Assembly: GCA_964016885.1 (NCBI GenBank)
Contig: OZ024742.1
Location: 52,824,001 to 52,888,000, forward strand
Reading direction: 5' to 3'
Source of the DNA: Eledone cirrhosa
Taxonomy: Eukaryota
DNA: 64,000 nucleotides
Shown: positions 3,001 to 63,846 of the stretch, in pieces
How positions within the stretch are numbered: the first letter of the stretch is position 1
Layout: every line of letters begins with the position of its first letter
Notes under the pieces: model-generated
Database searches by the model: none
Seen by the model: only the letters and a program-made list of their open reading frames with translations
Told to the model about the DNA's origin: nothing
Made by a program: the position numbers and the translations under genes

Positions 3001-6000
3001 GTTGATGTTGGTGTTGGTGTTGGTGTTGGTGTTGTTGTTGGTGTTGGTGTTGGTGTCGGTGTTGGTGTTGTTGTTGGTGTTGGTGTTGGTGTTGGTGTTG
3101 GTGTCGGTGTTGGTGTTGTTGTTGGTGTTGGTGTTGAAGTTGGTGTTGGTGTTGGTGTTGGTGTTGGTGTTGTTGTTGGTGTTGGTGTTGAAGTTGGTGT
3201 TGGTGTTGGTGTTGGTGTTGGTGTTGGTGTTGGTGTTGGTGTTGAAGATGGTGTTGGTGTTGGTGTTGGTGTTGGTGTAGGTGTTGTTGTTGGTGTTGAA
3301 GTTGGTGTTGGTGTTGGTGTTGGTGTTGTTGTTGGTGTTGAAGTTGGTGTTGGTGTTGGTGTTGGTGTTGGTGTCGGTGTTGGTGTTGAAGTTGGTGTTG
3401 GTGTAGGTGTTGTTGTTGGTGTTGAAGTTGGTGTTGGTGTTGGTGTTGGTGTTGGTGTCGGTGTTGGTGTTGATGTCGGTGTTGGTGTTGGTGTTGGTGT
3501 TGGTGTTGATGTCGGTGTTGGTGTTGGTGTTGATGTTGGTGTAGGTGTTGTTGTTGGTGTTGAAGTTGGTGTTGGTGTTGGTGTAGGTGTTGTTGTTGGT
3601 GTTGAAGTTGGTGTTGGTGTTGGTGTTGGTGTTGGTGTCAGTGTTGGTGTTGGTGTTGGTGTCGGTGTTGGTGTTGGTGTTGGTGTTGGTGTTGATGTCG
3701 GTGTTGGTGTTGTTGTTGATGTTGGTGTTGGTGTTGGTGTTGGTGTTGTTGTTGGTGTTGGTGTTGGTGTTGTTGTTGATGTTGGTGTTGGTGTGGGTGT
3801 TGGTGTTGGTGTTGGCGTTGGTGTTGGTGTTGGTGTTGGTGTTGGTGTCGGTGTAGATGTTGGTGTTGGTGTTGGTGTTGGTGTTGGTGTTGGTGTTGGT
3901 GTTGAAGTTGGTGTTGGTGTTGGTGTCGGTGTTGGTGTTGATGTTGGTGTTGGTGTTAGTGTTGGTGTTGGTGTTGGTGTTGGTGTTGGTGTTGTTGTTG
4001 ATGTTGGTGTTGATGTTGGTGTTGGTGTTGGTGTTGGTGTTGGTGTTGTTGTTGATGTTGGTGTTGGTGTTGTTGTTGATGTTGGTGTTGGTGTTGGTGT
4101 TGATGTTGGTGTTGGTGTTGGTGTTGATGTTGGTGTTGGTGTTGGTGTTGGTGTTGGTGTTGGTGTTGGTGTTGGTGTTGGTGTTGGTGTTGTTGTTGAT
4201 GTTGGTGTTGGTGTTGGTGTTGATGTTGGTGTTGGTGTTGGTGTTGGTGTTGGTGTTGAAGTTGGTGTTGGTGTTGGTGTTGGTGTTGATGTTGGTGTTG
4301 GTGTTGGTGTTGTTGTTGATGTTGGTGTTGGTGTTGGTGTTGGTGTTGAAGTTGGTGTTGGTGTTGGTGTCGGTGTTGGTGTTGATGTTGGTGTCGGTGT
4401 TGGTGTTGGTGTTGGTGTTGGTGTTGGTGTTGGTGTTGGTGTTGTTGTTGATGTTGGTGTTGGTGTTGGTGTTGATGTTGGTGTTGGTGTTGGTGTTGGT
4501 GTTGTTGTTGATGTTGGTGTTGGTGTTGTTGTTGATGTTGGTGTTGGTGTTGGTGTTGATGTTGGTGTTGGTGTTGGTGTTGATGTTGGTGTTGGTGTTG
4601 GTGTTGTTGTTGATGTTGGTGTTGGTGTTGATGTTGGTGTTGGTGTTGGTGTTGGTGTTGGTGTTGTTGTTGATGTTGGTGTTGGTGTTGTTGTTGATGT
4701 TGGTGTTGGTGTTGATGTTGGTGTTGGTGTTGGTGTTGGTGTTGGTGTTGGTGTTGTTGTCGGTGTTGGTGTTGGTGTTATTGTTGATGTTGGTGTTGGT
4801 GTTGATGTTGGTGTTGGTGTTGATGTTGGTGTTGGTGTTGGTGTTGATGTTGGTGTTGGTGTTGGTGTTGGTGTTGGTGTTGTTGTTGATGTTGGTGTTG
4901 TTGTTGGTGTTGGTGTTGGTGTTGGTGTTGATGTTGGTGTTGGTGATGGTGTTGGTGTTGGTGTTGGTGTTGATGTTGGTGTTGGTGTTGGTGTTGTTGT
5001 TGATGTTGGTGTTGGTGTTGGTGTTGATGTTGGTGTTGGTGTTGGTGTTGGTGTTGTTGTTGATGTTGGTGTTGGTGTTGTTGTTGATGTTGGTGTTGGT
5101 GTTGGTGTTGATGTTGGTGTTGGTGTTGGTGTTGGTGTTGGTGTTGGTGTTGGTGTTGTTGTCGGTGTTGGTGTTGGTGTTATTGTTGATGTTGGTGTTG
5201 GTGTTGATGTTGGTCTTGTTGTTGGTGTTGGTGTTGGTGTTGGTGTTGGTGTTGTTGTTGGTGTTGGTGTTGGTGTTGGTGTTGGTGTTGGTGTTGGTGT
5301 CGGTGTCGGTGTTGATGTTGGTGTTGGTGTTGGTGTTGGTGTTGGTGTTGGTGTTGATGTTGGTGTTGGTGTTGGTGTTGGTGTTGGTGTTGGTGTCGGT
5401 GTCGGTGTTGGTGTTGGTGTTGGTGTTGGTGTTGTTGTTGATGTTGTTGTTGGTGTTGGTGTTGGTGTCGGTGTCGGTGTCGGTGTTGGTGTTGTTGTTG
5501 ATGTTGGTGTTGGTGTTGGTGTTGTTGTTGATGTTGGTGTTGGTGTTGTTGTTGGTGTTGGTGTTGGTGTTGGTGTTGGTGCTGGTGCTGGTGTTGGTGT
5601 TGGTGTTGATGTTGGTGTTGGTGTTGGTGTTGGTGTTGGTGTTGATGTCGGTGTTGGTGTTGGTGTTGAAGTTGGTATTGGTGTTGAAGTTGGTGTTGAT
5701 GTTGGTGTTGGTGTTGGTGTTGGTGTTGAAGTTGGTGTTGATGTTGGTGTTGAAGTTGGTGTTGATGTTGGTGTTGGTGTTGGTGTTGAAGTTGGTGTTG
5801 ATGTTGGTGTTGGTGTTGAAGTTGGTGTTGATGTTGGTGTTGAAGTTGGTGTTGATGTTGGTGTTGGTGTTGGTGTTGGTGTTGAAGTTGGTGTTGATGT
5901 TGGTGTTGGTGTTGGTGTTGAAGTTGGTGTTGATGTTGGTGTTGGTGTTGGTGTTGAAGTTGGTGTTGATGTTGGTGTTGGTGTTGGTGTTGAAGTTGGT

Positions 6001-22300: not shown

Positions 22301-22358
22301 TTGTTGCTGTTGCTGCCACTGCTCTGTCATCTACAAACTTGTTATCATATGTATTTTC
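1..22358 (-). CDS. Giant Thr-Pro (PTS/mucin-like) repeat exon, >=7,452 codons, continuing past the window start
   Basis: The minus frame reads [29 protein letters not shown]... (ACA CCA)n with no stop or frameshift seen. Common variants are synonymous (CCG/CCT/CCC, ACT/ACG/ACC) or P>S/T. The His-Gln frame has repeated stops; the Asn-Thr frame is open in the array but stops at 22328-22330. Coding status is inferred, not proven. Confidence 0.7.
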
Positions 22359-23795
22359 TTAGCCATGAGGGTTATTGCTTGATTTGTCTGCATTCATCTG
22401 ACTATGGTCTCCTTCTTTCCTGCTCAATTTAAACAGTAAAATATTCATGTAGTACATTGTTAGAAATCTACGTATATCTACTATAACACATTTTTATAGA
22501 ATTTTGTTGTAGTCTATGAGATATTTGAAACTCTAGCACCTTTAAATTTATATGGAAAATGTCTACCTTCTTGCTGGACTGTATATTAATCGTTAGAACA
22601 AGGCATGGAATGCTATAAAATTCATGAAATATTCTAATTTTGTTAAAACGTCTCACTTTTTTCCTCCACAATTAGATTATTGATTTCTTCAATCGAGAAG
22701 TTCTTTTGTTTACAGCAAGAAGATTTGATAAGAATCACACTCCTCCTACATTTGATGGTCGATAAATGAATTGAATGAAAATGAGAAAATTCTCAACGTA
22801 CTTTTCCCTACCAATGACATTTCTGGGGCAGTTGTTTTCCATTCGGAGCATTATTTCTCTTTGATCTCATACAAGGATATTCCCGAATAATTTATATTTT
22901 GTTATTATATTTTTATTTTATTTATATTTTTAGCTTAATTTCCTTTGACTAGAAAACACTTTTAATTTAGTCGACAAACTTGTTTCTTCTTTCTTGTTAA
23001 TACTCACTGTTGGGAATGTTATTCAAGTGCCACGCTTTGCAAAAAGAAACTTAGAACAGAACTACAGTTATGGCAGTTCTCTTACCGAAAACAATATTTT
23101 AGGGTTGTCGTCGCCATATTTCTTGCAGTAATGTTTACCAATTCACCTAATGAGTTCCTTTAACGGCAATTTATCTTCTTATGAAGAAATCGTATTTATT
23201 GTATTTATTTTCCTTATTTGTTTATTCCAGGATATGAGAAGGCATTTGAAAGTTAGAGTTATGAAACATAACAAATTCTACTTTTTACAACTACAGTCGT
23301 AAATATTTATCTCATAGATATCATTCGTCGTAATACACAGTTACAGTCAGTTTCCATTGAAGTGTTAATTATTTTAAAGTAGTTGTGAGAAAGTCGAATG
23401 ACTGTCTGCGTCATACTGAGATCTATTGATAAAATCTCATTCCAAAGTTTGTCTCTATTTCTTTTTTTTTTTTTGCTTACAATTTCATTTCTATTAACAT
23501 TTCTATTTCTTACTTATTTATTACTCACGTTTTCACCAATAATAGATACGTTCTCTGCTGTCAGATACAGGTACACTCTGAGGGCGAATCAACAAGAATC
23601 CTTCTTTATATAGAGTGTTGAAATGTTGGAGTCACTCCAAATTTCATTATTTATGACCCTACTGGAAAAGTGTAAAAACTGTGCACCATAAGATGCTGTC
23701 ATAACAGGTTATGATTGTTAGCAATCTTATGCCACAAACATTTTAATGACATTTCTTTTCAAATATTCCTCCCGATCAGTTCGAATATTTGGATA

Positions 23796-24060
23796 TCTGG
23801 TCACTCCTGTTATCAGGATATCTGGCTTAGCTCTGGCCACTAAAGTTTCTAGTATATGTGGTTTAGCTCAGGTTACTACAGTTTATAAGATATGTAGTGA
23901 GGCCCTGATTACTAGGGTTTCTTAGGTATGTAGCTTAGCTTTGGTCACTGCTGTTCCCAGTACATGTTGTTTAGCTCTGGTCACTACAATTTCCAGTATA
24001 TGGGGCTTAGCTCTGATCACTCTAGTTTCTAACATATATAGTGTGGCTCTGGTGACTAGT
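23796..24060. repeat. Diverged 36-bp tandem repeat, 7 full copies plus a partial copy
   Basis: Units start at 23796, 23832, 23868, 23904, 23940, 23976, 24012 and 24048; consensus about TCTGGTCACT...GTTTC.AGTATATGTGG.TTAGC; no indels. Confidence 0.9.
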
Positions 24061-25323: not shown

Positions 25324-25357
<34 letters not shown>

Positions 25358-25908
25358 CATGGTGGCTGCCAACTCGTTTTCGGGTACGGCCACTACTTTA
25401 TATCCATGTAGGAGAACCCCTATCGATGCGCTGAACGAGTGTGACTTTTTAGTCCAGCCAGCCACTTGAAAACTCTGGCGACAAGTGCAGAGAGATCTCC
25501 AGATATAAAGCAATGCCTGTGCCGTGAAGCTTTTATAGTGAGCAAAGGCACTGCACAAAGCCAGTCCCACTCTCTTAACCAAGATGATATTTACCAAAAA
25601 GAAGAACAAGTCAACATCATTGGATACCATCAGGGTTGCAGGTGTTATATCAGAGTTTTCCTTCTCCTAGAATTCTGCCTTGACAAAGGCTAAGAGGTCA
25701 TCTCTCCCGGTGATTTCGGATGGCCATTGACTCTTACGAGCTCCTTTGCCCTTTGACAGGTTTTGTTTTTAGTCCTGCAGGATGTCCAAAGTCACCCTCC
25801 TCACCAAGAAACCTTGGTGGGGTTGCCAGTTTAGTCGTCAACGACCCGACCATGAGACAGGTTGTACTGGGATACATGTTACCAGTAGCACCAACTGGTG
25901 ACCTGACA
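25358..25908 (-). mobile_element. Short non-autonomous RTE derivative (RTE 5'UTR plus RTE 3' end), bounded by (TACA)n
   Basis: 25548-25700 matches the RTE upstream region at 58565-58730. The end GGCC..GAAAACGAGTTGGCAGCCACCAT-(GTAT)n resembles the RTE 3' end at 54432-54475. Confidence 0.7.
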
Positions 25909-25939
25909 TACATACATACATACATACATACATACATAC

Positions 25940-26347
25940 ATGGTGGCTACCAACTCGTTTTCGAGTAAGGCCACTACTTTATATCCATGTAGGAGAACCC
26001 TACCGATGCGCTGAATGAGTGTGACTTTTTAGTCCAGCCAGCGACTTGAAAACTCTGGTACAAACACTATACTTGTGACAATTATTGGCACATAGTGCTG
26101 GGCCCATGGTATCATGTGACGACAAGTGCAGAGAGATCTCCAGATATAAAGCAATGCCTGTGCCGTGAAGCTTTTATAGTGAGCAAAGGCACTGCACAAA
26201 GCCAGTCCCACTCTCTTAACCAAGATGATATTTACCAAAAAGAAGAACAAGTCAACATCATTGGATACCATCAGGGTTGCAGGTGTTATATCAGAGTTTT
26301 CCTTCTCCTAGAATTCTGCCTTGACAAAGGCTAAGGGGTCATCTCTC
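25940..26347 (-). mobile_element. Second, 5'-truncated tandem copy of the same RTE derivative
   Basis: Near-identical to 25358-25705, with an extra ~60 bp at about 26058-26118. Confidence 0.7.
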
Positions 26348-32832: not shown

Positions 32833-34195
32833 CTTATCTTATTTAAGTCTACTTTATATTATGGTGTTACAAGAGATCTGATATTCTGTTTCTATGCTGT
32901 TATTCTCATTTCAATGGTGAAAGCAAGCAAAAGGAACGAACAAAAATATAGAGAAACTCCAATTGATAACACATAATGGCATGTTAGAATAGGATGTAGT
33001 CTTGGGGCAAAAAAGTAATATTCACACAAAGAACAACAATACTGGAAGCACTTAAGATTCTACGCCACAATACACTCTACTAAACTTAGCTTATACTGCA
33101 CTTAAAAAAATATCTTCAATAGCTTAACAGTGTCAGGCCTTAATATTTCATTTAGCTTCATGGTTTTAGAAAGGTGTATGTGACAATAGTAACAACAGTC
33201 TCTGACAGTACAATGTTCTCACATCTACATATTAACATATGTTCAAACCAAAAAAGGAAAAATTCCAAACAAAAAACAAAAACAAGTGACAAAACAGAAC
33301 AAAACATAACAAAAACCATACAGCAACGACCGACAAAACTAATGCACAAAAGTAAAACATATATCTTTGAGTGTACCGAGTAGATTTACAGACAGGTAGA
33401 TGAGGGTGTGCCTATGTGGTCATTTCTATCTAATTTCTCGACCTGCTAGAAATAACAGCCCAAACGTATTGAAATAACTTTGAATGACCAAGATGGATTA
33501 TGTAGTTTCAGATATACTATGGGATAACAGAAAATGAGATGGTCACGGCTGGGACGTCCTTAATCATACACTTTATTTATTGAGATAGTAAAAAGAAGGG
33601 CGCATTAGATAACGTATTTCTATATATTCAATATCTGAATTAAAGATGATTCACGACAAAGGTGACGGCGACAATGTCTTTCGTCTTCTCTATTAGTGCC
33701 GTATGTATATATGGACCCGTAACAACTGGTGGAGGAGTCATAGGGGCAGCGTGGTTTCAGACAGCGTGTCTTGGACATTTCAAACATGGCGGAGCTCATC
33801 CCCTCTTTAGCCAATTTCTTCCAGAGAAGAAGAGATGGAGAGGGGGTGAGAAGGAGGTAGTAAATAAGAAAGATATATAGAAGAATAATCGATCCCAGTA
33901 CTGGACTGGTACTTTTTTATCGACTTCAAAAGGATGAAACACAAAGTTAACCTCGGTGGAATATATATATATAGCCCCGAAGAACAAACATCGAAGCCGC
34001 CTGTACCCATATCGATAGCCTCTATTGAATTAGTAATATAACATAACATCCTTATTACTAGAGATGATGTTGGTGAGGTGGTGGCGTGATGACTGCTATA
34101 CCTAATCATGAACGCCCCGGAAATATGCATTGAAGCGGATTCTTAATTAAATAAATTATGAGTATCTACATCTAGCCTTTGCAATTATCATTATT

Positions 34196-34365
34196 GTGGC
34201 ATAGAGTTACGACCCTTTACGTTCGGGATTCATATCCCGCCGTGGTTAGCTTTGCCTTTCATCCTTAGGGGGTCGATAAAATAAAGCATCAGTAATGCAC
34301 TAGGGTCCATTTAATTACTTCCCCTTCTCCAAATTGCTGGCCTTGTGCCTATAGTAAGAATCATC
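34196..34365 (+). mobile_element. tRNA-derived SINE (Meta-domain-like core)
   Basis: B-box-like GGATTCATATCCC followed by TTTGCCTTTCATCCTTAGGGGGTCGATAAAATAAAG and GGCCTTGTGCCTA; same family as 63052-63235. Confidence 0.75.
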
Positions 34366-35960: not shown

Positions 35961-38900
35961 TTACTGGGATGCAGTGCCTCTCTCCACTCTGATTCTCATT
36001 GCAAAGTGATACTTAAAGAAGGGAATCAATTGTTGTCCGGAGAGAAAGGCATCTGTCCTCAGTCCTCTCAATCTCGTCCACCATATAACTTCTTTCACCA
36101 TAGCCAGCTCTGTACAGAGGAAAACCGCCTCTCTTTCGTTTTTGAAAGAGGCTGGCGGTTTTATCCTTACTATGGACTCGGCAGTCAACTGGATTTGTCC
36201 CATGCGCGACAGCAGTTGTTCTGCATAGTTCCACAGGTGGGTTACGCCCGTGCAGTGTACAATTACGTGCAGGACTGTTTCAATGTCCTGCGCGCATCTT
36301 GGACACGTCCTCTTGGAAGGATCCCTTCCGGGGCGTCCGTGCCTGTAGATCTTGTCGCGAACCGGTAGAGTTCCTCGATAGCACTGCCAGGCCAGGGACC
36401 TCTGGAAGTTGTCCATGGGTCCCGGGCGGAAAGTCCTACCAAACAGACTGGTGAACTCATCGTCTTCGACGCACAGAGTCTCTCCGAGCACGTCGTCGCC
36501 CTTGTAACGTACAATCCCTCTATAGAATGTCGAAGTGGAGTCTCCACTGATTGCTGCGCCCGCTTGCCAGAAGACTGTGAGCGCCTGAGCGCATTCAATG
36601 TGCCAGGCGCCCATCGTTTTCGGTCTTTTCTTCACCCAGGACTGCAGCTCTGTCAGCGAGACGAGATGTGGGAAAGCCTGTCTCACAAACGGTGCCCACG
36701 TCGGTTGGGGGTCGGTGAGGAATACCTGGAGATGCCGCAGCCTCAGCGCATGTTTGCGCATCATCAGCCACGGCATTCCCAGCCCTCCGTTGGAAGGGTG
36801 CTGACAGCAGACGGATCTCCTCACCAGCGGAGCCTGCTTGTTCCTCAGAAACTGGAAGAGCATGCGTTCCATCTTAGCGAGGTGTTCACGGGGACAAGGC
36901 ACGACAGTCAAGCGGTAGTAGATCACGGACGCTATGAAAGTGTTCGCCACCTCCGTTCGACCTTTCAAGGACAGTTTGCACTCTGCCCACTTCTGGGTGA
37001 ATGCAAACACCTTGGCCGTGACCTCGTTCCAGTTTTTCTCCACCTGGAGGTCTGGACCGAACCAGACCCCGAGCAATTTCACTGGTCCGTCCGTCCAGCG
37101 TCCAACGACGCTGTCGGACGTCATCGGTTTGCCTCTCCACGTACCGAGTTGCAAACCGACAGACTTGTCCGGGTTTAGTTTTGCTCCCGTCAGCGTTTCG
37201 TATTATTTCAGTAAGTTGCCGATCATCCCGATTTCCGAGGTGCTCGACACCATTACCGTCATGTCGTCAGCATAAGCCGACGCCCCTTTGCGCAGTCCCG
37301 GTTCTAGAGGGATGCCCTGCAATAGCTCCAATTTCCGCAGTAGTGGCTCTAGAGTCAATACATACAGAATGGAGGTGAGAGGGCACCCCTGTCGAATGGA
37401 ACGCGTGATTGCGAACGGCTCCGATAGGTAGCCGTTCACTTTCACCCTATCGCATGAGGTTGTCGTGTATGGACCTGGTCGGGATTGCACACGTTTGCGC
37501 TTTCCCTACCAGGTTCTCAACGACAAGCGCCAACCTCGTCGCTAGCACCTTGGCCAAAATCTTTAATTCTGTGTTGAGCAGAGTTATGGGCCTGAAGTTG
37601 TTAATTTCGTCCCCCTTGTTCTCGTCTTTCCTGATCAGCGTTACTACGCCCTTGCCTACAGAACTGTGAATTCTCCCGTTCTGCTGCCAATTGCAGTAGA
37701 CGGCTTCGAGGACGCCAGAGAACAAGTCCGGCATGCCTATGTAAAACTCATATGGTAGACCATCTAGACCGGCTGACTTGCGTTTCCCGCAGCGGCCCAG
37801 AGCGTCCCCTATATCAGTGTCCGTGATCGGTCTTTCGCAGAATTCGGCGTCCGTGTTAGAGAGACGCGGCAGGAGTTCGGCTCACCGTCGTTCTGCTCAA
37901 ACAGTCGCGCAAAGTGCTGCTGAAAGGCCGCGCACATTTGCTTGGGGTCAAGTAGCACGCGTCCGTTTTGGTCTTTCAAAGACCGAATCGTGGTCTTGTT
38001 GCCACTTTTCGCCTCCGCCACTCGGGCCTAGGTGACAGTTTTCGCTCCTTCGTTTCCTAGAGCAAGTGTTTTGCTTCTGACCACGCAGCCTTCTTGTTTC
38101 CCATCGAAGAACTGGTCTAGTGTCGTTCTTGACGCTACCACTCTAGTCGCGTTGCCACTTCTAAGCGCCTCCTCTATCTTGGCTACTAGTTCTCTTTCTA
38201 TTTTGTTTTTCTCTAAGGCTAAATCTCTGCTAAACTCTATCGATTCTCCTCTAGTTGCTTTCTTGAGAGAGTACCACCATCCATTGTTGACGATGGCTCA
38301 GGTTAACTTTTGCCTCACTAGTCTACTTATCCGTTCACTATAAGCTTTACGTGCCGGCAATGACACGTTCAGCTTCCAGTATCCGGGTCTTTGTCTATGT
38401 ATTCTATCACCGTTGACTAAGCAGACGACTAATTTGTGATCTGAGTAGGCAACCATGTGCATTCATGGACGGCTTAACATCTCCTTGTCCCTTTGTCTAA
38501 TGAAGAACCTATCTAAATACGATCTAGATGACCCGCTCCGGTTTGCCCACGTCCACTGTGGAGCAGTCGGGAAATCCAGTCGATACCTATCGGCCAGTTG
38601 GAATTGGCCGATTAAAGTTTTGAGGCTGTTGCACCCCCCTCTACTGGGACATGCTCCCACATAATCCCATCGTGCATCTAGGATACCATTCATTCCAGTC
38701 CCCCACTAAAAGTAAGGAGAGAGATGTTCCCAGAAAAGACTCTAGACGCTTAAAGAAGTCTGGCCGTGATTGCGATTGCCCGGTCGGGGCATAAACGGCC
38801 ACGAGTCTGAAGGCTCCACCTCCAATACTGTTCGCGTCTAGGACTACCAGTCTACTCTCCGCGTCCAAGTGTACTTGCTGTACTTCGACGTCCAGGTTCT

Positions 38901-39078
38901 TCCGAAACATGACAGCCACTCCCCTCCACCTCCTGGCTGGCAGAGAGATGCGTAGATCTCAAAGTCGTCGAAGATGGGGGTTAGTTGCTGCCTGTTGTGG
39001 ATCCTTTAAAAGTTGGCCCTGTTTCCAGGGCATTCCTAGGCCACGCACATTCACGCTTCCAGCTCGTAAACTAGCCAT
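35961..39078 (-). pseudogene. Tx1 ORF2 (APE endonuclease, reverse transcriptase, CCHC), disrupted
   Basis: Starts MASLRAGSVNVRGLG at 39078. Motifs VYAPT, GDWN, SYLDRFF, FRPITLLNTELKIL, RQGCPL, YADD and CPRCAQDIETVLHVIVHC. Several frameshifts, plus an internal deletion near 37445 that removes the AFD motif. Confidence 0.9.
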
Positions 39079-39120
39079 GTTGGTGAATAAAAGTTGGAGA
39101 AAAAGGACGAAAAGGTGCAC

Positions 39121-40996
39121 TTACCTTTTCGTTTCCTGGAGATCGGGTTGTTCAATCTCCATTTGGGTGCTGGATGGGGTGTTGGGTGGGGTGGGGAAAC
39201 ATTTTAATAGGACGCGGTTGATGGGTTTCTGGCAGGGGTTGCCCACGTCCTGTGAAAATTTATTTTTTATGTCACTATAGGTCTCCATAGAAACCCTTAT
39301 AAGTTTGAGGTGTGGAGACGATTCTGCTTTGACGAAACTTTTGCCCTCTGTCTCCACCTTGGGGTTTTGGGAGATGACCTCCATCACACACTTGTTGTTT
39401 GTGTTTTTGTTGTGTTGTTTTAGTTTGTTGTTCGTCCGGGAGTTTTCTTTTTATGGTGGGTGCTTATTTTGGGGTGGTGTTAGTGTTGGTTTTGCTGGTA
39501 GGGGGATGTTTGACTGTGGTGTTGTTTGTGTTGTTGTTTGTGTCTGTGGTTGTCGTTGGTGTTGGTGATTTGGAGTTTTTGGGGGTTTGTGGTGTCTCTT
39601 TTTTTGATTTTTAGATTTTTCACGGCTCTTCTTCTTCTTCACTTAAAGAAGGAGAAGCAGCCTCATCTGTCGGTGAATAATCATCGTCAGGAGTGTGGGG
39701 TAGGGGTATGTTGTGTGGTGGTGGTGTTTCGGTGTATGTGTTTGTGGTAGTGTTTGATGGAGTGGGGTGGGGCTGTGTTCTTCAGGGGTGTTGTCTGTGT
39801 TTTTTCTATTGTTGTTGGTTGAGTGGCTGTTTGTTTTGGTGTGTTTGCTCGTTTCGTCTGTTGCTGTACTTGTGGTGGTGGTTGTTTTGGTGTTGGTGTT
39901 AGTAATAGTGTTTTTTTAATGATGTTGTGGTGTGTTTGTAAAGGACAGGAGGCTTTTAGGTGTGCTGTGGTACCACAGCGAAAGCAATGAAGTTTTCGAC
40001 CCTCCACCGTAATGTTTATTTTGTTGTTGTCGTCGATGACGACTTTTACGGGTACTTTAGAGATTCTCTCCGGCCTCATTTGAATCAGAATCTCCAAATC
40101 AGTAGCCGCCCACCTTTGTCTAATAGACTTTCGTATCGAAAGAATCATATCAGTCTCTGGCTCTACGAAGCCAGCCAAGATCCACCAGATGTTAATGTTG
40201 GGTGGTATATTTTTTTTTTTTGTGTCCTTTTTCCCATGTATGTAGGGAAAAAGGTGAATGCTTTTGACACCATTGGTGTCACAGAATGTTTTTGGGCGAG
40301 TGCCTCGCTTTTTAACAGTACGGAAACACTTCCGTACTGTTTTCCTCGTTGGAGAAAGTCAATATTTGCTAGAATCTCCTTGAAGGTCGCTTCTATATCT
40401 GCTTGACTAATAAATATAGGCTTTCTCGTTGTGTTAGAGACATTCCTAAATGTCACTGTCCTTCGAACTGTCTCTTCTTTCATTTCGAGGGTGAGTTAAT
40501 TCTAAATCCACCCTTGTCTTCGAAAGTTACAAATTTTCTCCCTTGATGGAGCATATCTCTTGCATTGGAGATGTCAAGATTTATAAAATCTTGTTTTTTG
40601 TTCACTGTTTCAGCGAAAGACATTTTTTTTGTGTGGTGTTGCTGTTGTTGTTATTGTTATCGTTGTTAGCCTCGGTGTTGGAAATCTCAATTTCTTGACG
40701 AGGTGAAACTTTATGTGTAGATGTATTTATGGAGTTGTTGATGTTGTCTTTTTCATGTGTATGTTAATAGGTTTAATTCCTGTGTTTTCCCGTGTGTTAT
40801 TGTTATTTTTCTCCGCTTCGACGGTAGAAAATTTAAAATCTTCAAGTGGTAATATTGTTTTCTCTTTGTTGACAGTCGTATCTATGGCGACGTCCATAGT
40901 AGAAGAAGCAGATATAACGTTAATATCTGCCTCTCTACCTCTCTTTTCTCTGTCGACGTTCTCTAGCGTTCTTTCCGATCTATTCATAGTTGGCAA
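39121..40996 (-). pseudogene. Tx1 ORF1 (zinc-knuckle protein), frameshifted
   Basis: ORF pieces 40996-40727, 40483-40163, 40178-39687 (CX2CX4HX4C), 39642-39451 and 39387-39121. Confidence 0.75.
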
Positions 40997-41187
40997 AATT
41001 TGATATTTTAAAACAATTTTTAAATTAAATTTTCGCCCCTACAGGGGCGAAAAATGGGATTACCACCCAGCTGAAAATTCAGCTTGGGGGTTAATCTACA
41101 AAATGTTATGTTTTTTCAAACAATTAGTTCGGTTTTTTGCATAGAAATTAACAAAAAAGCTTACCGGCGATGTTTCACGCGTCATGC

Positions 41188-46015: not shown

Positions 46016-46199
46016 ACACACACATAAATATAATGCATATTCTCTCCTGAAGGAGTAGTAGTGGCGCTGTATTGACATACGGCGTTTCTAGGGGATTTTT
46101 TTTCATAGCAGAGAGCGTCTCCTCTCCGGGTCTGCGACACCATATTTCTTCCAGAGAAGGATTGAGAATGAGAGAAAGAAAGTGAGAAATAGATACAGA

Positions 46200-46365
46200 G
46201 GAAGAATCGACCCTAGTACTAGACTGGTGATTTTTTATCAACCTCGAAAGGAAGAAAGGCAAAAGTGGCCTCGGCAGGATTTGAACTCAGGGACCAGAGA
46301 GCCGAAACAAATACCGCAAAGCTTTATATCCGACCTTCGAACGATTCTACCAATTCAACGCCTTA
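46200..46365 (-). mobile_element. tRNA-derived SINE copy
   Basis: TTTTATCAACCTCGAAAGGAAGAAAGGCAAAAGTGGCCTCGGCAGGATTTGAACTCAG. Confidence 0.7.
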
Positions 46366-46614: not shown

Positions 46615-46618
<4 letters not shown>

Positions 46619-47385
46619 ATTACGTAACTGTCTTTATCCCATTGCAGAAACTAATTAGTTGGAGTGAAAATTTTAGTAAGTTAATTTTTAAAAAATTTTT
46701 TAAATTTTCTTATTTTACGTCTTTTATATTATTGTTCTGCATCCTCCTGCATTGAACCACCTAGGTACTATGACATAACCTGTGTATTTGCTGGCATTAG
46801 CGTACATCCGTACGCATATGTTAGTAGATATACTAAATTCTCTATATTTATTTCCAAATTACTTATTTGTCGAGCAAACCTACCAAAACCACTACTAACT
46901 TATTGGTGTGATAGTAGGCATCTGTCATCTTACCATCCCACTCCTACCGACTAGCCTCAGTGTCATGTGATTGATTCTTTAGATTTTGCCATTTGACCAG
47001 AGACAGTGTGATTTTCAGTGCATGGAATCCAGTCCCCGCTAGCTGTTCCATCTACCGAATTAATATTATTTTTATGAGTCCCCAGTGTCCGCGCATTTCC
47101 TGGAGACTTAGCTGAGAATAGACTCCCTGATGACGCAATGAATTCTCGATAGTTTGATTACGTAACTGTCTTTATCCCATTGCAGAAACTAATTAGTTGG
47201 AGTGAAAATTTTAGTAAGTAAGTTAATTTTTAAAATTTTTTTTAAATTTTCTTATTTTACGTCTTTTATATTATTGTTCTGCATCCTCCTGCATTGAACC
47301 ACCTAGGTACTATGACATAACCTGTGTATTTGCTGGTATTAGCGTACATCTGTACGCATATGTTAGTAGATATACTAAATTCTAT
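46615..47385 (+). mobile_element. Head-to-tail 538-bp repeat (~1.4 units) carrying a hammerhead; retrozyme- or Penelope-pLTR-like, inserted in (TA)n
   Basis: 46615-46845 recurs nearly identically at 47153-47383; both ends abut (TA)n. Confidence 0.7.
47122..47203 (+). ncRNA. Type I hammerhead ribozyme
   Basis: ACTCC-CTGATGA-CGCAATG...CATTGCA-GAAA-CTAATTAG-TT-GGAGT. Perfect 5-bp stem I, intact core, 6-bp stem II with a GATAGTT/AACTGTC extension, palindromic stem III and a GUU site. C-A mismatch at 10.1/11.1. Confidence 0.75.
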
Positions 47386-47411
47386 ATATATATATATATT
47401 TTATATATAAA

Positions 47412-47814: not shown

Positions 47815-47960
47815 ATTGGCAGAGTTATTAAGAAGTCGAATAGAATGCTTAACAGTATTCGTCCCACCTCATTGCGCGCCGTACTCAACTTTGATTTCAT
47901 CCTTTCGAGGTCGATATAAAACGTACCAGTCCAGTATTGGGGTCGATTCTTCCTCTATAA
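47815..47960 (+). mobile_element. Diverged tRNA-SINE copy
   Basis: TGGCAGAGTTATTAAG A-box-like sequence and TTTCATCCTTTCGAGGTCGATATAAAACGTACCAG core. Confidence 0.6.
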
Positions 47961-50246: not shown

Positions 50247-53200
50247 GTCAACGCGATCAGTCGCATATTTTGGCATGGGAGACTATTTATTAAATTTAAG
50301 ATGAATACTATCTCAGACAGTAATGCCACAACTACAGTCATGTTGAATAACTGGTTATTCTTCTAACTATATCCACTGAAGACACCTTTTATTCGAATTC
50401 GTAGAGATATTCGACTAAATACATAATTCATTTTACAAGGATTTGCTACAAACAGCATGGCTGAACACAGCATCAACATCAACATTAAGGAAGTATCGAA
50501 CATAAACAACGAGGAAAGAAAACAACATGTATTCAGTTGTAGCTACAGAAGAAACCGAAATTATAATACGCATTTCTCTTGGAGTTGTGAACTTAATGAT
50601 GATTTATTTAATTGTTATAAAATTGCAAAAACCAATCCCTCCATTGGCTATATGAACAGAATGAAGCTACACTGGGACGAAATGCACCCAGAGCTAAATT
50701 ATATTACAGCGAAACAATTACGCCAACAAACGACGTTTGTTGGACGTAAAAATAAGATAAATATTATTAATTGTAAGACCCCCACAACAAACATGTGATC
50801 AACAACACGTGCTACAAGTCGGCATGCTTCCTAGCAGCCAGGTCGAACAGTGCCTGTAAGAAACTTGACACCACGTGTACCTTCTAAGTCTACTTCGAAT
50901 GCTGGGGAAAACACTATCGATAATTATAATAATCGAAGAAATTTGATACCACGTGTACCATCCGAGTCTACCTCGACTATTGTGGAAAATACTATCGATA
51001 ATGATAATAATCAAAAGTTTAAACAATTGAAAATTTCACCCAACGAAATCTTCCAGAGAGAAATTAATTCATATATAAATATCTCTCTTGCTGCACGTAT
51101 TAAAACGACAGTATTTTATAAAAAGAAAAAAACAAATAATGAAATATTACGTGTTATTGACGAAATAGGAGATGAATATTTACGACGGATAAAAACCCCA
51201 ACATTTTGGCAAATCAACGCCTGCTTATATGCCTTAGCAACGACTGTGAAGCATTATCTTGGTGATAGCCGAGATATTAACAACAAAACACCACCAAAAA
51301 TACCATCATATATAACTAAAATAGAAAAAAAGATTGCTGACCTACGAAAAACCATAGGATATGCGACAATGCTCCTTACATGCAAACAAACATAAAAAAA
51401 CTTCACTCCTCACCAACAAAGAATGAAAAATAAAATAGAGACGATGTTTGGTAACAGTAGAACCATAACTCTTCGATATAAGCTGATCACCTTCAAAGAA
51501 TTGAGAGCTATCAGCGAAAAAGGCCGATACCTGAAGAAGGTAGATGAAAGTAAAATGCTTAATAAAAGATTCAGACAAAACCAAACATCAGTCTATAGAG
51601 ATATGAAGGGCAAAATAATAAGTGTCACTGAGGCCCCATCCCAGAAAGACATAGATTCCTTTTGGAGAAAAATATGGGGTGAAAAGAAAAATTTCAACCA
51701 AGATGCAGTGTGGCTAAAAGAAATCCAAAAGAACTATTGCTCCTAAACTACAACAAAAACATACGAAATAAGTGAGGGTACCCTTGAGACTGTGATAGGA
51801 AAACTCCAAGATAAGAAAACACAAGGAAGAGACATGATTGTCGACTACTGGTACAAAAAACTAATATTCTATCGGAGGTATCTTACCGACCTCTACCAGC
51901 AAGTTCTTAGGGGAGCTACATTTATACCAGAATGGTTGACATTAGCACAAACATTACTAGTCCCCAAGAACAAAGACACCCACTTGACAAAAAACTACCG
52001 AACCATTGCATGCCAGAACCTGATGTATAAGATGTATACAGCCTGGCTGAATCTATTCCTCCAGGATCACTATGAAAATAATAACATCATCACAGATGAA
52101 CAAGCAGCTGGAAAGAAAGGGGCTTGGGGATGAGCTGAACAACTCCTAATCAACAAAACTGCGATGCCTGCCGGAGGTGTGACAACTTAGGAGGAATATG
52201 ACTACAGTCTGGCTGGACTACATGAAAGCTTTCGATTCTGTTCCCACTCTTGGATGATAGAGGCCCTCCGACTTGCTAAAGTACCAGACATTATTATCAT
52301 AGCCATAAAAAAGCTGTCTTCTTCTTGGGCTACTATCCTAAGGTTAAAGACAGAGAAGGAGGACTCTATATTCACTGATAAAATAAAATATCGCAGGGGT
52401 ATATTTCAGGGAGACAGTCTTTCTGTGATATTATTTATCCTGTCATTAAACCCCTTGTTCTTTCTGCTCAAAGAATGTGAAGGATACATCATTAGCTCAC
52501 AGGAGGACAGAAATACGAACCTAACCCATAATTTCTTTGTGGATGATCTGAAACACTATGCCAAGAACATGGATGGGATGAAGAAAAATCTTGACCTGGT
52601 TACAACGTTCTCAAAGGATATAGGCATGGAGTTTGGCCAAGATATATGCTCATATATGACTGTAAAGCGGGGAAGAACAACAACCCAATCTAGCAGCATT
52701 GTCATCAATGGCCTAACTGTTTCACCGATATTTGATGAAGACTGCTACAGATACCTGGGGAAAGATGAGAACATATCCTATAATGGTATCTGTAATAAGG
52801 AACGCTTAACCAGGGAATACTACACCTGATTAAGGAATATTTGGTCATTGGAACTCTCTGCACAAAACAGAACAGTGGCTCACAATGTGTTTGCTGTGCC
52901 TGTCCTAACACCAACGTTTGGAATACTCAATTGGACGATAGACGAAATCCGAGCAGTTGATGTTAGAACTCGAAAAATACTAAACAACACTGGAAACTTC
53001 CGCATCAACAGTGACATAGACCGCCTTTACTTGAAACGTAAGCAGGGAGGCAGAGGCCTAACATCAGTTCAGACAGCATTTGAATGTCGTATCATATCTC
53101 TCCGACGACATCTACGAACCTCGAAGCGTAGGAGCCCATCTTTCGAGCAAGTCTATCTGCATGAAACAGATAAGATCATGAGAGTTGGGAAGGAACTCCT

Positions 53201-54322
53201 CGAGAGATATTCCCTGTGTGATAATCAAAGACTCACACTCGGGGAAGTCGCTCAGCAGTATCGCATTGAATCCATAGATGAAAAACTGCATGCTTATCAG
53301 CAAAATATCATACACGGATATGTTGCCAGGAAGCTGTGGCCAGAGTGAGGTTAATATAGATAAACAAAGTAGTCTATCTTGGACCTACAACCTCTATATT
53401 GGCTCCCACTTTGAAGGATACGCTTTTACAATCCAAGAACAGGAGATTAACACGAAATACCTGATTCACAAAAGAAATAGGGATGCAGACAAAACACCTA
53501 GATGTGATAACAAGTGCAGACTCTGCAGAATTAACATCGAAGATGTCATCCATGTCATAAGCAGCTGTCAAAAGATGTCATCAGGGTACTATCTGCCTAT
53601 GAGTCATGATGTAGTGGCCAAAACACTGTACAATGCAATCCGTAGAAAAGATAGCCCCTATAATAAACACATTAAAAGCTACAGCAATGTGGAAGAGATA
53701 CATATACATAATATGAAAGAGTACTGGTAGAATGTTCCAGTAAAAACCCCAATAAAATGCAGGCATAACAGACCAGATATTATAATATGGGACTGGGAAA
53801 AGAAGGCATGCGCAGTAGTGGAAGTTAGCTGCCCAGCAGATGCCAATATAATATCAAAGATTAGCGAAAAGGAGAATATTTATGCAGAATTGATGAGAAA
53901 TCTGCAGATACTCCACCCTGATTATACCTTCAGATTTATGCCTGTGATTATTGGGGCACTGGGATATGTTAGTAACTACCTCAAATCTTGAGAAGCTGGG
54001 CTTCACAGGAACAGAAAGAACACAACTAGTTAGGAAATTACACGTACAATCCATTAATGGAACAGTAAAAATATGTAAAACATTCCAAAAATGTTGCATC
54101 TAATAACTGAATATACACATGTACAGATACAAAGCATATACACATGCACACATACAACTCAAAACATACACACCCACACTTACAATAACATCCATATCTA
54201 CACATGCATGCATGCAGACATGCAGACATATCTACCTAGTTGATGTTGTGTAAATTCTAATGAGGGAGTCTTGTGTCTCTCTCTCTATTGGCAAAAATTT
54301 GTGAAATTTTAAAACCAGAAGA
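50247..54322 (+). mobile_element. Near-full-length degenerate R4/Dong-clade non-LTR retrotransposon (RT plus restriction-like endonuclease)
   Basis: Motifs NYRTIACQNLMYK, AFDSV, GIFQGDSLS, FVDDLK, RYLG, DRLYLKRKQGGRGL, CRLC...HVISSC, HDVVA and RPDIIIWD...VVEVSCP. No APE domain. (TACA)n on both sides; many stops. Confidence 0.9.
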
Positions 54323-54769: not shown

Positions 54770-57700
54770 CTAACAGCGCTGCGATCGAATGTGGCTTTTT
54801 AGCCCAGCCAATGATCTAAAATGTCTTGCACAGAGTCGGCAACCAAAACATTCACTGGGAATAGTCAGCTGTGGTTGGAGTTCGTGTACTTTTGCATGTC
54901 GCTTGAGCCCTCCTGCTGATTTACATTCTCTACCACATGTTTGGCAAGCATGATGAGTAGGATCTCCAACAGCAGCCTGGTAGTCAACCACTGGTCTTAC
55001 TTTATGACTGCAAAGATGACTTTCGAGTCCAGCTTTGCTTAGGCAGAGTCTCGCACAGACGCTGCATGTCAGCACCATAGGAGGACACTCGCCGTCTGGA
55101 AGTACAACAGCAATGCTCTTCCTCACATCCCGCTTTACTTTCTCGTATGCGATTCGAGATGCCTCAAAGTCAACTTTTCCCTCATATACAGTCTTTCTCC
55201 ATTTATTACGATCAGCAGCAATATTTCCCATGTATCAGCAGAGATGTTAGCGTCTTTCAGAGAGGCTTTCAAGAAATCCTTATACCTCTTTTTTGGTTTA
55301 TGTAGCGGTCGTTTTCCTTTAACCAACTCTCCATAAAAGAGTTGTTTTGGTATTCTAGAATCCTTCATCCTGGCAAGGTGACCACTCCAACGGAGTCGTT
55401 GCTTAAGCACAAGAGCTTCTATACTCTCACACATAGAGCTTTCCAAAATCTCGACATCACTGATGTGGTCCCTCCAGTGAACGCCATGGATCCGTCTGAG
55501 ACACATCTGATGGAAACGCTCCAATTGCTTAAGGTGGTGTCGATATGTGACCCAGGTCTCGCAGGCATAAAGAAGACAAGAGAGCACACATGCCCTGTAC
55601 ACCTTTACCTTTGTCCTCCTGCATATGTCTCGCCGACCCCAGAGTCGCCTTTCTAGATTTCCGAAAGCATCACTTGCTTTCCTAATCCTAAGTGAGATTT
55701 CACTGTCAAGGTTGCCGTATCGATTGACAGTGCTTCCCAGGTAGACAAACTGATCAACCACTCCAAGTCGTTTACCATACACATAGATATTTGGTTCAGT
55801 GTACTGCTTACCAGGGGCAGGTTTGTACATGACGACGGTTTTCTTGAGACTGACAGTCAATCCTAGGGCAGTGCAAGCGTCAGAAAATGCATTCAAAATG
55901 TGCTGCATATCACTCTCTGTGTGCGCTACAAGATCGCAATCATCTGCATACAAGAGGTCTCTTATGATTGATGTAAATACTTTTGTCTTTGCATCAAAGC
56001 GCCTGATGTTAAATATGCTGCCTGAGGTTCGATATCGGATGTAAACACCATGCTCGCAATTCCTGAATGCAATACAGAAAACCATTGCAACGTATATGGC
56101 AAACAGGGTCGCTGCTGGAATATCCCCCTGTTTCACTCCATTTTTTACTGAGATAGGCTCCGACATGTTACCTCCGACATTAACCCAAGCCTTCATGTCG
56201 TCATGGAAAGACCTAACTAAAGCAAGGAACTTATCAGGGCAACCAAGTTTCTGGAGAACCTTCCATAATGCATCTCTGTTAACAGTATCGAAAGCTTTTG
56301 TCAGATCGACAAAAACCTGATACAGATCCAAGCCTTGTTCCATGCACTTCTCCTGGAGCTGTCTAGCTGAGAAGATCATATCAATAGTGCCGCGTCCAGC
56401 ACGAAAACCAGATTGACTTTCAGGAAGAACACAATCTGCAATGTGTGTCAGCAGACGGTCCAGAAGCACCCTACATAAAACTTTCCCTACGACAGAAAGC
56501 AATGATATACCTCTGTAGTTCCCACAATCGTTCCTGTTACCCTTTCCCTTGTACAAGACCACCATTACTGCATCTCTCCAGTCCTCAGGTACGGATTCAT
56601 TAGCCCATATCCTGCCAAATAAAGAGTGAAGATGTTGCAGGAGTCTCTCACCACCATATTGTAGGAGCTCAGCATGTATGCCATCCATACCTGGAGATCT
56701 TTTACTGTTCAGCTTCGAAATAGCCACTGCAACCTCCACAAGCGTCGGAGGTTCTGCGAGAGCTACTTTCACAGGACTTTCTGGAATGAGATTGAGGAAA
56801 TCTTCACTGACGACAGACGGCTGATTCAAAAGATCATCAAAGTGCTCTCGCCACCTTCGTAGAATTCATTGTGAGTCACGAAGAAGTTCTTTGCCATCTT
56901 TGCTGCGAAGCGGTGTCACCAGAGAAGAAGATGGTCCATAAACCTTACGCAAGAGACTGTACAACAGCTTTGTGTTATTGGAGTCTGACGCAGTTTGTAT
57001 CTCACCAGCCTTCTCACTCCACCACTGATCCTTCATCTGAGAAAGACTCCGCCTAACACGTGATTTTACATCCTTGAGTTCCTCATGCAACGTATTCCTC
57101 TCCTGTGGTTTTGCCGTCAAGTAGCGTGACAGAGCACGCCTCTTATCAGCCAACAAGTATTCTATATGTACATCATTCTCATTAAACCAGTCCTGATGTT
57201 TTCTCTGCACCAATCCCAGAACACGCCTGCCTACATCATAAACCGACTTTTTAAGGGTCGGCCAATCCTCACCAAGATCTGCAGCCTGCATCTCTTCTTC
57301 CAATGTCCTCTTCACATTTTTATCCTTAAGACGAGCAGCATTCAATCTTTTGGGCAGGGCAACACCAGGAGCCCGGATTTTACGTTTAGTGATTCGTTTC
57401 ACTTTTGCGCGTACCAGGCGGTGGTCCGTCCAGCACTCAGTTCTACGAAGAGCACGAACACACTGCACATCCTGTCTGTCACGCATCCTGACTAGGACGT
57501 AGTCCAAAAGATGCCATTCCTTAGATGCAGGATGCATCCATGTGGTCTTGAATTTGTTCTTTTGTTGGAACATGGTGTTGGTAACACACAGATCCAGCTC
57601 CTCACACATCTGCATCAGGAGCATACCATTGTTGTTACACTTTCCCACCCCATGCCTTCTGATTACATTCCATGTGTTAAAATCCCTATCCACTCTAGCA

Positions 57701-58320
57701 TTAAAGTAACCAAGCACGATGACTTTGTCTGCCTGAGGGATATTTCTTAAAACACCTTTCAAGGCATGGTAAAAGGACAGTTTTTCTTCATCGACAGAAT
57801 TCATAGTTGGAGCATACACACTCACCAGGGTCGCATATCTTCCTTTGTCCAGCGGAATTCTCATGGACATAAGACGCTCACTAATCCCTACTGGGAATTC
57901 TTCTAATGTATTCACAAGAACAGTCTTAACAGCAAATCCTACCCCAGCCTCTCTTCTGGTTCCTTCATCTCTTCCTTTCCAGAAGAATGTATATTCTGCA
58001 CAAAATTCTGTAAGATGACCATCTCCAGCTAACCTCGTCTCAGATAAAGCCACGATGTCAAGATCGTAACGTCGAAGCTCCTTTGCAACAAGAGCGGTCC
58101 TTCGTTCAGGACGCTCCAAGGAATCCCTGTCAAGCAGCGTCCGTACGTTCCAGCAGCCAAGACTAAATGCCTTGTTTGGCTCTATTACAATGGCACGATG
58201 ACGAGCGGGCCCAGGCTGTGATAACCTGGGGCCCCTGCCCTTATTGCCAATTATCTTTTTTGTTCCAGAACCTAAATTGCCAATTATCTCTTTTATATTG
58301 TTCTGGAACATCATTGAATT
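54770..58320 (-). pseudogene. RTE ORF: APE endonuclease, RT and three C2H2 zinc fingers, broken into three frames
   Basis: WNVRTL, SETRL, YAPT, DYVL, TDH; NYRGISLLS, DLTKAFD, GVKQG, YADD, YLG; CSVC..H, CQTC..H, CRLC..H. Breaks near 56860 and 55230. Confidence 0.9.
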
Positions 58321-58364
58321 GGAAAAAAAAAAAAGTAATAATAATAGTAACAATAATAATAATA

Positions 58365-58475
58365 ATTGTTTCTACTTTTGGCACAAGGCCAGCAATTACC
58401 AATGCATTACTGGTACTTTATTCTATCGACCCCGGAAGAATGAAAGGCAAAGTTAACCTCGGCGGGATTTGAACA
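58365..58475 (-). mobile_element. tRNA-SINE inserted in the RTE 5' region
   Basis: GGCACAAGGCCAGCAA...TATCGACCCCGGAAGAATGAAAGGCAAAGTTAACCTCGGCGGGATTTGAAC, flanked by (AAT)n. Confidence 0.8.
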
Positions 58476-59019: not shown

Positions 59020-59200
59020 ATAGTTGAAGCCGATCGTATTACAGTCCAGTATTACTATAATTGCTTTACAGCATAGAGTTATGGCTCTCCGCGCTCTGAG
59101 CTTAAATCCCGCCGAGGTCAACCTTTCCTTTCATCCCCACGGAGTCAACAAAAGAGAGTATCAGTGATCCGCTGGACCAGTCGCTGGATCCGTGCCAAAA
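59020..59200 (+). mobile_element. tRNA-SINE copy
   Basis: CTGAGCTTAAATCCCGCCGAGGTCAACCTTTCCTTTCATCC. Confidence 0.7.
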
Positions 59201-59870
59201 GCAGAAAAATTATTATTAAAGTTGTTTTCTTAAGGCCCGGTCGCTGGTGATGGTGATGGCAGCGGTGGTGGCGGTGGTGGTGGTGGCAGTTGATGTTGTT
59301 GTTGTGTTGTGTGCGTGTGTGTGTGTGTTTTGTTATTTTGAGTTTTTTTGTTTGTGATTTTTTTTTTGGGGGGGGGGGGGGGGGTTTACTTTTGATGCTG
59401 CTGTTGTAAATGTTCATTTCAATTCATTCTGAAGCTGTTGTTGCTGTAAACATTAGTGCCGGTGTTGTTGTTGTAGATGTTGGGGTTGAAATCTGGTACA
59501 TACATACATACATACATACATACATACATACATACATACATACATACATACATACATACATACAATCCAATACAAGAAATACATACCAAGTTAGATCCTC
59601 TACTTGGTCACTGAATATATATAATTAAGCAGACCTATACTCTAAGACATTGAGTCATGACTATTCTGTCCTTTCAAAAATAGTTTTATATTTGATAAGA
59701 TTCACCTTTATAACTTTCCTTTCTTTTAAAGACAGTAGGAGGATTTGATATAGATTTTGTAGCTACTTTTAGCAGATCAAGCGAATACATAAGGACACTC
59801 TCAGTTATCATATGACAATGAAATGAAAGACAGAGAAACAAATTTAGACAACAGTATATTGGTCACATAC

Positions 59871-60419: not shown

Positions 60420-60540
60420 TAAAATATACCAGTATTTGTTCCGCTCACTTCACTCTGAGTTCAAATACCACGGATGCCAACTATTCTTTTCATTCTTTCA
60501 AAGTCGATAAGTAAAGTGCCAGTCAAGTACTGAGGTCGAT
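60420..60540 (+). mobile_element. tRNA-SINE copy
   Basis: CTGAGTTCAAATACC...TTTCATTCTTTCAAAGTCGATAAGTAAAGTGCCAG. Confidence 0.65.
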
Positions 60541-60949
60541 TCTTCCTCTTTCTTTCTTTCTCATTTTCTTTCTTTCTCTTTCTTTCTCGCTTTCTTTCTT
60601 TGAAAGAAATTCGTCGCGTTCCACCTGGAGAAGGATGAACTCCACCATCTGTAAAATGCTTGAAATACTCCAAATATCAGGAAATGTGAACTTGTCAGGA
60701 CTTAAGGACTCTCTTATCTTCTGCCTGTATTCATTGTCGTATCTCTAACCGCATTCACATTAAATTTTAATTATATATTTGTAATTGTAATTTAGGTTTA
60801 CTTTAGCCATTCGAAAGATATAATTAATTTAACTATTAATATGATTACTCAGACTCTCTCTCTCTATCTATCTATCTCTTTCTCTCTCTCTCTCTCTCTC
60901 TCACTCTCTCTCTCTCTCTCTCCCTCTCTCCCTCTCTCCCTGACACCAC

Positions 60950-63016: not shown

Positions 63017-63051
63017 GTGTAGTGAAACAGTATACACAATAAAAAAATAAC

Positions 63052-63235
63052 TGTTTCTACTTTAGGCACAAGGCCAGCAATCACCCAGTGTATTACTGGT
63101 ACTTTATTTTATCGACCCCGTAAGGATGAAAGGCAAAGTCAACCTCGGCGGGATTTGAACTCAGATAGTAAAGGGACGTAACTATGCTGGAAAGCATGGT
63201 GTCTGACCCTCTACCGATACTGCCAATCCACAACT
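63052..63235 (-). mobile_element. Full-length tRNA-derived SINE
   Basis: Minus strand has A-box TGGCAGTATCGGTAG, B-box GAGTTCAAATCCC and core TTTGCCTTTCATCCTTACGGGGTCGATAAAATAAAGTACCAG. Confidence 0.85.
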
Positions 63236-63599
63236 TCATATAAACGTAAATTCATTGTTTTGATTAATATATACACTCTACCTGTGCATCGAGTGCTGAA
63301 TTTGGTACCAACACCACTAATTCACTGAATCACATACACTATATATATAGTTAGATAGATGCAAAATGCTTATCTCCATTTTAAGCTTCTGTTTTCTTCC
63401 TGACATACAGTGACTTTCTGTGTCTCTTTTTAAATCTCACGATTTCTACCTAGAGCAGACTAAACACATTTTAATGTTTTATGTGTCAGTTTCTCAGACT
63501 ATTATATGTCATTCTTCTCTGTGTTCTTTCTGATAAGGTAGCTATTGAAATGAGACAGTTGTCTGTCTCCGTTTATTAATTTATATCGCTAAAACTCAC

Positions 63600-63846
63600 C
63601 TTCAGCTGGCAATAATCCAATTTGTGAATTGTCTGCCATGATATAATTATCTAGATTTAATGTTGCTGGTTGCAGCTGCAGCGACTCTTGTCGGTGTTGC
63701 CATTGTTGTTTTTGGTGGTGGAAGTATTATCGCTGTGTCATTGTTGTTTTTGGTAGTGATAGTGTTGTTGTTATTGTTTGCAGTGTTAATTGTGGTAGTG
63801 ATATATTGTTGTTGTTTATCCCCAAGTCAACATTCATATAGTTGAC
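63600..63846 (-). pseudogene. Candidate Thr/Pro-rich exon with a strong donor site and one in-frame stop
   Basis: Acceptor ATAATAG|G and consensus donor GAAG|GTGAGT (63599-63594). Reads VNYMNVDLG...TITTTLSLPKTTMTQR*...MADNSQIGLLPAE. Confidence 0.35.

Follow-up and report, generated by a model that had tools for sequence, protein, structure and literature searches.

The in-frame TAA that stands just ahead of a giant (ACACCA)n array on the minus strand of the window (the whole 64-kb stretch of DNA that was analysed) is real yet unremarkable, and there is no sign that a real gene is broken or switched by it. We tentatively favour, at somewhat less than even confidence, the reading that it is an ordinary stop, that the array is untranslated and that the TAA possibly closes a 12-codon ORF of a small two-exon transcript. 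The features from which this reading is argued are directly observed, namely the letters themselves, the chance levels of such a stop, the openness built into the repeat and the lack of both a further ATG and a signal peptide.

The window consists of AT-rich animal DNA in which microsatellites and LINE-like reverse-transcriptase ORFs are frequent, and its repeat landscape suggests an octopod genome. Its left part is occupied by the (ACACCA/GGTGTT)n array (1–22303), which is at least 22.3 kb long and extends past the left window end. The array has a period of 6 with triplet slips, contains no frameshift in 22.3 kb, and is stop-free in three frames, Thr-Pro and Asn-Thr on the minus strand and Gly-Val on the plus strand. 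Higher-order copies at a lag of 3,354 bp were identical at 3,344 of 3,354 positions, with a longest exact run of 3,281 nt, and these copies are young. Nested higher-order duplications were observed within 1–22303 at lags of 3,354, 1,956, 1,398, 384, 288, 4,680 and 9,378 bp, together with regional variant signatures comprising a CGA block (∼13700–11000) and a TCG block (∼10300–8500) that is repeated at 720–60. A simple repeat of such length (22 kb) is unusual, and the array far exceeds all others in the window, where the next longest simple repeat measures ∼0.85 kb. In the flank at 59289, a 57-nt tract of triplets with a C core carries CCA/CCG/TCA/CTG variants as in the array.

The sequence-only reading had placed a TAA at 22361–22359 on the minus strand, in frame with the Thr-Pro array, and two AG acceptors ahead of exon starts at 22419 and 22330, the latter as TTTGTAG|AT in phase 1. 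The letters and the phase were borne out, with 22419 requiring phase 2. On the minus strand, the sequence runs TTGAGCAG followed by G AAA GAA..., with 22419 as the first base after the AG, and the TAA (22359–22361) lies in the context GGC TAA GAA, 18 codons upstream of the array. Past the TAA, the Thr-Pro frame continues for 7,452 open codons, from 22358 as far as the window edge. As the local stop rate in the neighbouring unique DNA is 0.08 per codon, a stop 18 codons into the unique lead of this frame is expected. Of 1,865 windows of this unique DNA, 20.8% had at most one stop per 38 codons, as did 5,424 of 20,000 segment shuffles (∼27%), so that the TAA and its open lead are not beyond chance. 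The lead contains one stop in the Thr-Pro frame versus two and four in the other frames. Any coding exon at 22419–22362 is putative.

The candidate acceptor at 22419 (22419–22424, minus strand) is a tandem GAG/CAG (NAGNAG) with a T-rich tract upstream, and GC content shifts there from 0.26 upstream to 0.40 downstream. The candidate at 22330 (TTTGTAG|AT, 22330–22337, minus strand) is weak, with a second AG 5 nt upstream and the better acceptor, 22419, standing 89 nt upstream of it. Ranking by a simple pyrimidine count, with no trained model behind it, showed that 386 of the 2,230 minus-strand AGs (17%) match or beat 22419 and that 763 (34%) equal 22330, being a YAG with as many pyrimidines. Since the two acceptors differ in phase (2 and 1), one upstream exon could not give rise to short and long forms of a single frame, barring a frame change.

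The openness of the giant frame is uninformative on coding because the hexamer keeps its frames open by construction. None of the 18 single changes of ACACCA creates a stop in any of the three frames (Thr-Pro, Asn-Thr and Gly-Val); the stops expected from the minor codons amount to only ∼0.7 events, giving a rough probability of ∼0.5 for observing none. The sequence-only reading overlooked this built-in openness, as well as the possibility that the array is untranslated and the overlap of the TAA with a plus-strand TAG that ends the Gly-Val frame. Should the stop be an ordinary one, the lesson is caution in annotation, with (ACACCA)n yielding three huge open frames, so that nothing is proved by a giant ORF that has a stop shortly upstream.

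The codon content of the Thr-Pro frame was examined with the same question of coding in view. P, T and S make up 98.9% of its 7,434 codons, of which 7,376 have C at position 2. Among the variants, TCA (P to S) and the synonymous CCG and ACT are the commonest; with these three excluded, a crude clustering of the rare variants by context yielded 25 clusters that exit P/T/S and 12 synonymous ones, and in the same crude clustering Thr-removing rare changes were not depleted. By this crude cluster count, made with the common variants set aside, the rare changes carry no purifying signal. The Asn-Thr frame was rejected as a coding frame, its third position being invariant and an ATG lacking, and the His-Gln frame was rejected as a long product on account of 26 stops within the array.

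On the favoured reading, the TAA would be a genuine ordinary stop, and no translated Thr-Pro protein would be broken by it. We infer that the array grew as a hexamer repeat via triplet slippage and kilobase-scale unequal exchange, a mode of growth that would keep the frames open without selection, and the TAA would simply be the first stop reached on exit from the array. If the region is transcribed, this would most likely occur as a small minus-strand unit driven from a TATA box at 23612, with a non-coding exon at ∼23579–23529, an intron of 1,109 nt and a second exon from 22419. In such a transcript, presumably spliced as described, the TAA would close the 12-codon ORF and the array would lie in the untranslated tail.

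The elements of this putative unit lie on the minus strand. A TATA-box-like TATATAAA (23605–23612) is followed ∼31 nt further on by an initiator-like TCAGAG (23581–23576), both being called by a match to the motif consensus only. The donor-like AAC|GTGAGT (23523–23531) would start the candidate intron (23528–22420) at 23528, and 11 of 2,556 GTs score at least 8 of 9 as this donor does; the candidate exon 1 (51 nt) contains no ATG, and 22419 would begin exon 2. The 12-codon ORF, MNADKSSNNPHG, spans 22359–22397 from the ATG at 22397 to the TAA. From 22420 down to 1, the Thr-Pro frame contains no ATG but this one, with none past the TAA. That the first ATG past 22419 falls in the Thr-Pro frame is expected in 1 of 3 cases by chance. 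No signal peptide was found in the model starting at ATG 22397, the best 9-residue hydrophobicity of MNADKSSNNPHG being −1.76. When the candidate exon 1 is joined to 22330 instead, the first ATG lies in the His-Gln frame and meets a stop after 29 codons, and such a splice would therefore lack the giant tail. Of the 31 TATA boxes tested on the two strands, one, at 23612, is paired with a strong donor (23528). This approximates the chance expectation for the whole window (about one pair), and solely the closeness of the pair to the array, which was spotted post hoc, is suggestive.

A run of seven to eight degenerate units of 36 bp each (23805–24056) lies immediately upstream of the TATA box and reads VTRAKPHILETx with three stops on the minus strand and TVSSICSLALVT with one stop in 83 codons on the plus strand. 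This repeat (24056–23805) was considered as a broken coding exon and rejected, with variation of 14/17/20 at the three codon positions and three stops in 84 codons giving no clear coding signal.

Several observations stand against an ordinary stop: the 98.9% P/T/S together with the position-2 C resembles a mucin domain, the common variants TCA, CCG and ACT are either synonymous or P to S, the first ATG past 22419 lies in the Thr-Pro frame, and the length of the array is unusual. The ATG bears on the proposal of a nonsense allele or pseudogene raised by the sequence-only reading. Here exon 2 would begin at 22419 and translation at ATG 22397, codon 13 would have mutated to TAA, and a giant Thr-Pro protein would recently have been silenced, which we consider unlikely. 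Compatible with it are the elements found 1.1 kb upstream (TATA box, initiator-like motif and donor), which form the only such pair among the 31 TATA boxes, the sharp composition change at 22419, the in-frame first ATG, the lead stops (1 versus 2 and 4) and the still homogeneous array. However, at most one stop per 38 codons is a 21–27% event, a signal peptide would be missing from the product, and protein searches revealed no relatives. Searches with the read-through lead detected no homologues at E up to 10 among proteins of 26–86, 87–2,000 and 1,980–6,300 aa, a weak test for a 49-residue query, and an exact 31-mer with the first stop base left free had no match in metagenome contigs. Among sequencing runs, three contig sets from one sample and one study contained 0.87–0.89 of 147 words and may represent the source sample, and no RNA set was among the matches. 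If the TAA segregates as a null allele, a 22-kb coding repeat would stand under a switch that is simple and can be tested.

A consensus error, with a sense codon as the true codon, had likewise been raised and appears extremely improbable. The window contains no N, the TAA site is not a homopolymer, and the array shows no frameshift in 22.3 kb and an exact repeat of 3,281 nt between copies. A base error at the TAA is unlikely because the intact frame and the exact repeat imply a high local accuracy.

The resemblance to a mucin can be developed into a reading in which the array serves as PTS exon in a giant mucin, entered downstream of the TAA at 22330 (phase 1) from signal-peptide exons upstream, so that the TAA would be intronic and harmless; we regard this as possible but somewhat unlikely. 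The Thr-Pro frame contains 60% T+S (0.603) and 39% P (0.385), above the thresholds given for PTS domains (T+S at least 40% and P above 5% in a repetitive domain; PMC4948705). Its codon position 2 is nearly invariant, and a 9-of-9 phase-1 donor at 63599 is compatible with 22330. Phase-1 borders are common for extracellular modules. This donor (AAG/GTGAGT, phase 1) belongs to a distant candidate exon on the minus strand (63594–63726) that ends ...MADNSQIGLLPAE G/GTGAGT and gave no match in Pfam. The same segment reads ...HQKQQWQHRQESLQLQPATLNLDNYIMADNSQIGLLPAE, and the Q/W/H residues at its start bear a loose resemblance to MTEQWQQQ...HQHQHR as read at 22330.

Against entry at 22330 as a mucin exon stand the weakness of this acceptor, 89 nt upstream of which lies a better one, the absence of a mucin domain from 123 upstream stop-to-stop segments of at least 42 aa, and the candidate exon at 63599, which is not hydrophobic (0.46). 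The Pfam set comprised these 123 minus-strand segments, all of at least 42 aa, above an entropy filter and clear of two LINE regions, and two chosen ones (125 in total). None of the 125 segments reached the Pfam curated cut-off and eight gave weak matches, all below it; VWD-C8-TIL or other mucin domains were thus detected at this cut-off in none of the 125 (at least 42 aa, within the window). A search of 22950–64000 against Rfam gave no match. Furthermore, by the crude cluster count, Thr-removing rare changes are undepleted in the array, unlike in rodent and feline mucin repeats (PMC9417175). The Thr-Pro frame would act like a mucin PTS domain, but a mucin assignment is not made: the composition agrees, whereas the ATG 22397 model has no signal peptide and no mucin domain was detected in the 125 segments. 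If the array were nevertheless a mucin exon, it would encode a very long PTS domain (>7,400 residues) with a two-residue unit and recent kilobase duplications.

The overlap between the two strands provides another explanation. The Gly-Val frame ends on a plus-strand TAG (22360–22362) that overlaps the minus-strand TAA, and a (Gly-Val)n protein might start left of the window and end at this TAG, in which case the TAA would be the shadow of that stop. The plus frame is open for 7,453 codons up to the TAG, and a T, sufficient for a minus-strand TAA, precedes 36 of 87 nearby plus-strand TAA/TAG. The plus strand is also T-rich and devoid of AATAAA/ATTAAA for 1.8 kb past the stop, as a 3′ UTR might be; 32 of 500 shuffles are likewise devoid of these hexamers. 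The link between the stops, however, works both ways, as A or G follows 36 of 85 TTA, so that each stop implies the other in ∼4 in 10 cases. Moreover, the skew was matched in 16 of 83 windows, the commonest array variant would change Gly to Asp, and a pair of TATA box and donor is absent from the plus strand. A plus-strand gene is a weak rival and quite improbable.

The sequence-only reading had further suggested an alternative acceptor that switches between a short product and one with the giant tail. In its extended form, a TATA-driven two-exon transcript would carry the 12-codon ORF, the UAA and >7,400 Thr-Pro codons, opened on demand either by the choice between 22419 and 22330 or by two A-to-I edits that turn UAA into UGG (Trp), giving a 12-residue peptide or decay on the one hand and a giant protein on the other; we hold such a regulated gate, whose product would lack a signal peptide, to be very improbable. 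Two AGs do flank the TAA, UAG to UGG stop-loss editing is described for coleoid transcriptomes (PMC8382921), and the host may itself be an octopod. UAA, however, requires two edits, and the site is not more strongly folded than its shuffles (z +1.23 and +0.77). Searched over 2.1 kb on the upstream side and 2 kb on the downstream side, the best duplex for the TAA was not above shuffles, the control being shuffled for the upstream side only, where the best duplex (−19.2 kcal/mol) was equalled by 12 of 40 shuffles. Acceptor choice fares no better, since exon 1 has no ATG and a splice to 22330 leads to the His-Gln-frame ATG with its stop after 29 codons. UAA-G is, in addition, a strong stop context, which counts against the gate. 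In the literature within reach, which did not extend to most subscription papers, no report of an octopod Thr-Pro array or of double editing of UAA in cephalopods was found. An editing or splicing gate would likewise place the 22-kb coding repeat under a simple switch that can be tested, and two edits within one UAA, if true, would exceed the cephalopod UAG cases of PMC8382921. A variant code with TAA as a sense codon was rejected on the basis of three LINE-like ORFs (576, 501 and 413 aa), which contain 19 CAA codons but neither TAA nor TAG internally, a mild test given that these are stop-to-stop ORFs.

Several other elements were noted in the window. A nearly intact LINE-like copy on the minus strand (54770–58371), presumably of an RTE-like family, comprises endonuclease, reverse transcriptase and a C2H2-like tail and is interrupted by one TGA at 56868–56866 and a frameshift near 55200. 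A decayed LINE-like copy on the same strand (35961–41000) has an ORF1-like region, in which a CCHC motif lies near 39970, together with a donor-like AAG/GTAAGT (9 of 9) at 39124, immediately ahead of ORF2. On the plus strand, a decayed non-LTR reverse-transcriptase element (50427–53730) consists of several in-frame pieces parted by stops. Local tandem duplications with 95–99% identity were found at 25325–25706 and 25906–26347 and at 46615–46851 and 47153–47393. A short interspersed repeat family, with a possible resemblance to an octopod SINE tail, has numerous copies, in both orientations, at 33814–34304, 46144–46357, 47886–47959, 58349–58474, 59062–59226, 60432–60583 and 63036–63230.

Compared with known systems, the array resembles a mucin PTS domain or exonic VNTR (PMC4948705, PMC9417175) in its 60% T+S and 39% P, its one very long repeat frame and its kilobase-scale internal duplications. 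It differs in that no signal peptide, start codon, VWD/C8/TIL or other domain was found with it, and in that its unit is only two residues long with Thr-removing rare changes apparently undepleted. Correction of premature stops by A-to-I editing is known in fungi for Fusarium PUK1 and others (PMC11156358), and these cases, like the coleoid UAG to UGG changes (PMC8382921), share with the present one an in-frame stop before a long open frame. Here, in contrast, the stop is a UAA that requires two edits, no duplex is predicted, and no conserved protein lies on either side of the stop. In comparison with an expanded hexanucleotide simple-sequence satellite, the array is far longer than the other repeats of the window and its position-2 C is nearly invariant, whereas it shares with such a satellite the period of 6 with triplet slips and no off-frame indels, the built-in openness of three frames, rare changes close to neutral and a setting rich in microsatellites.
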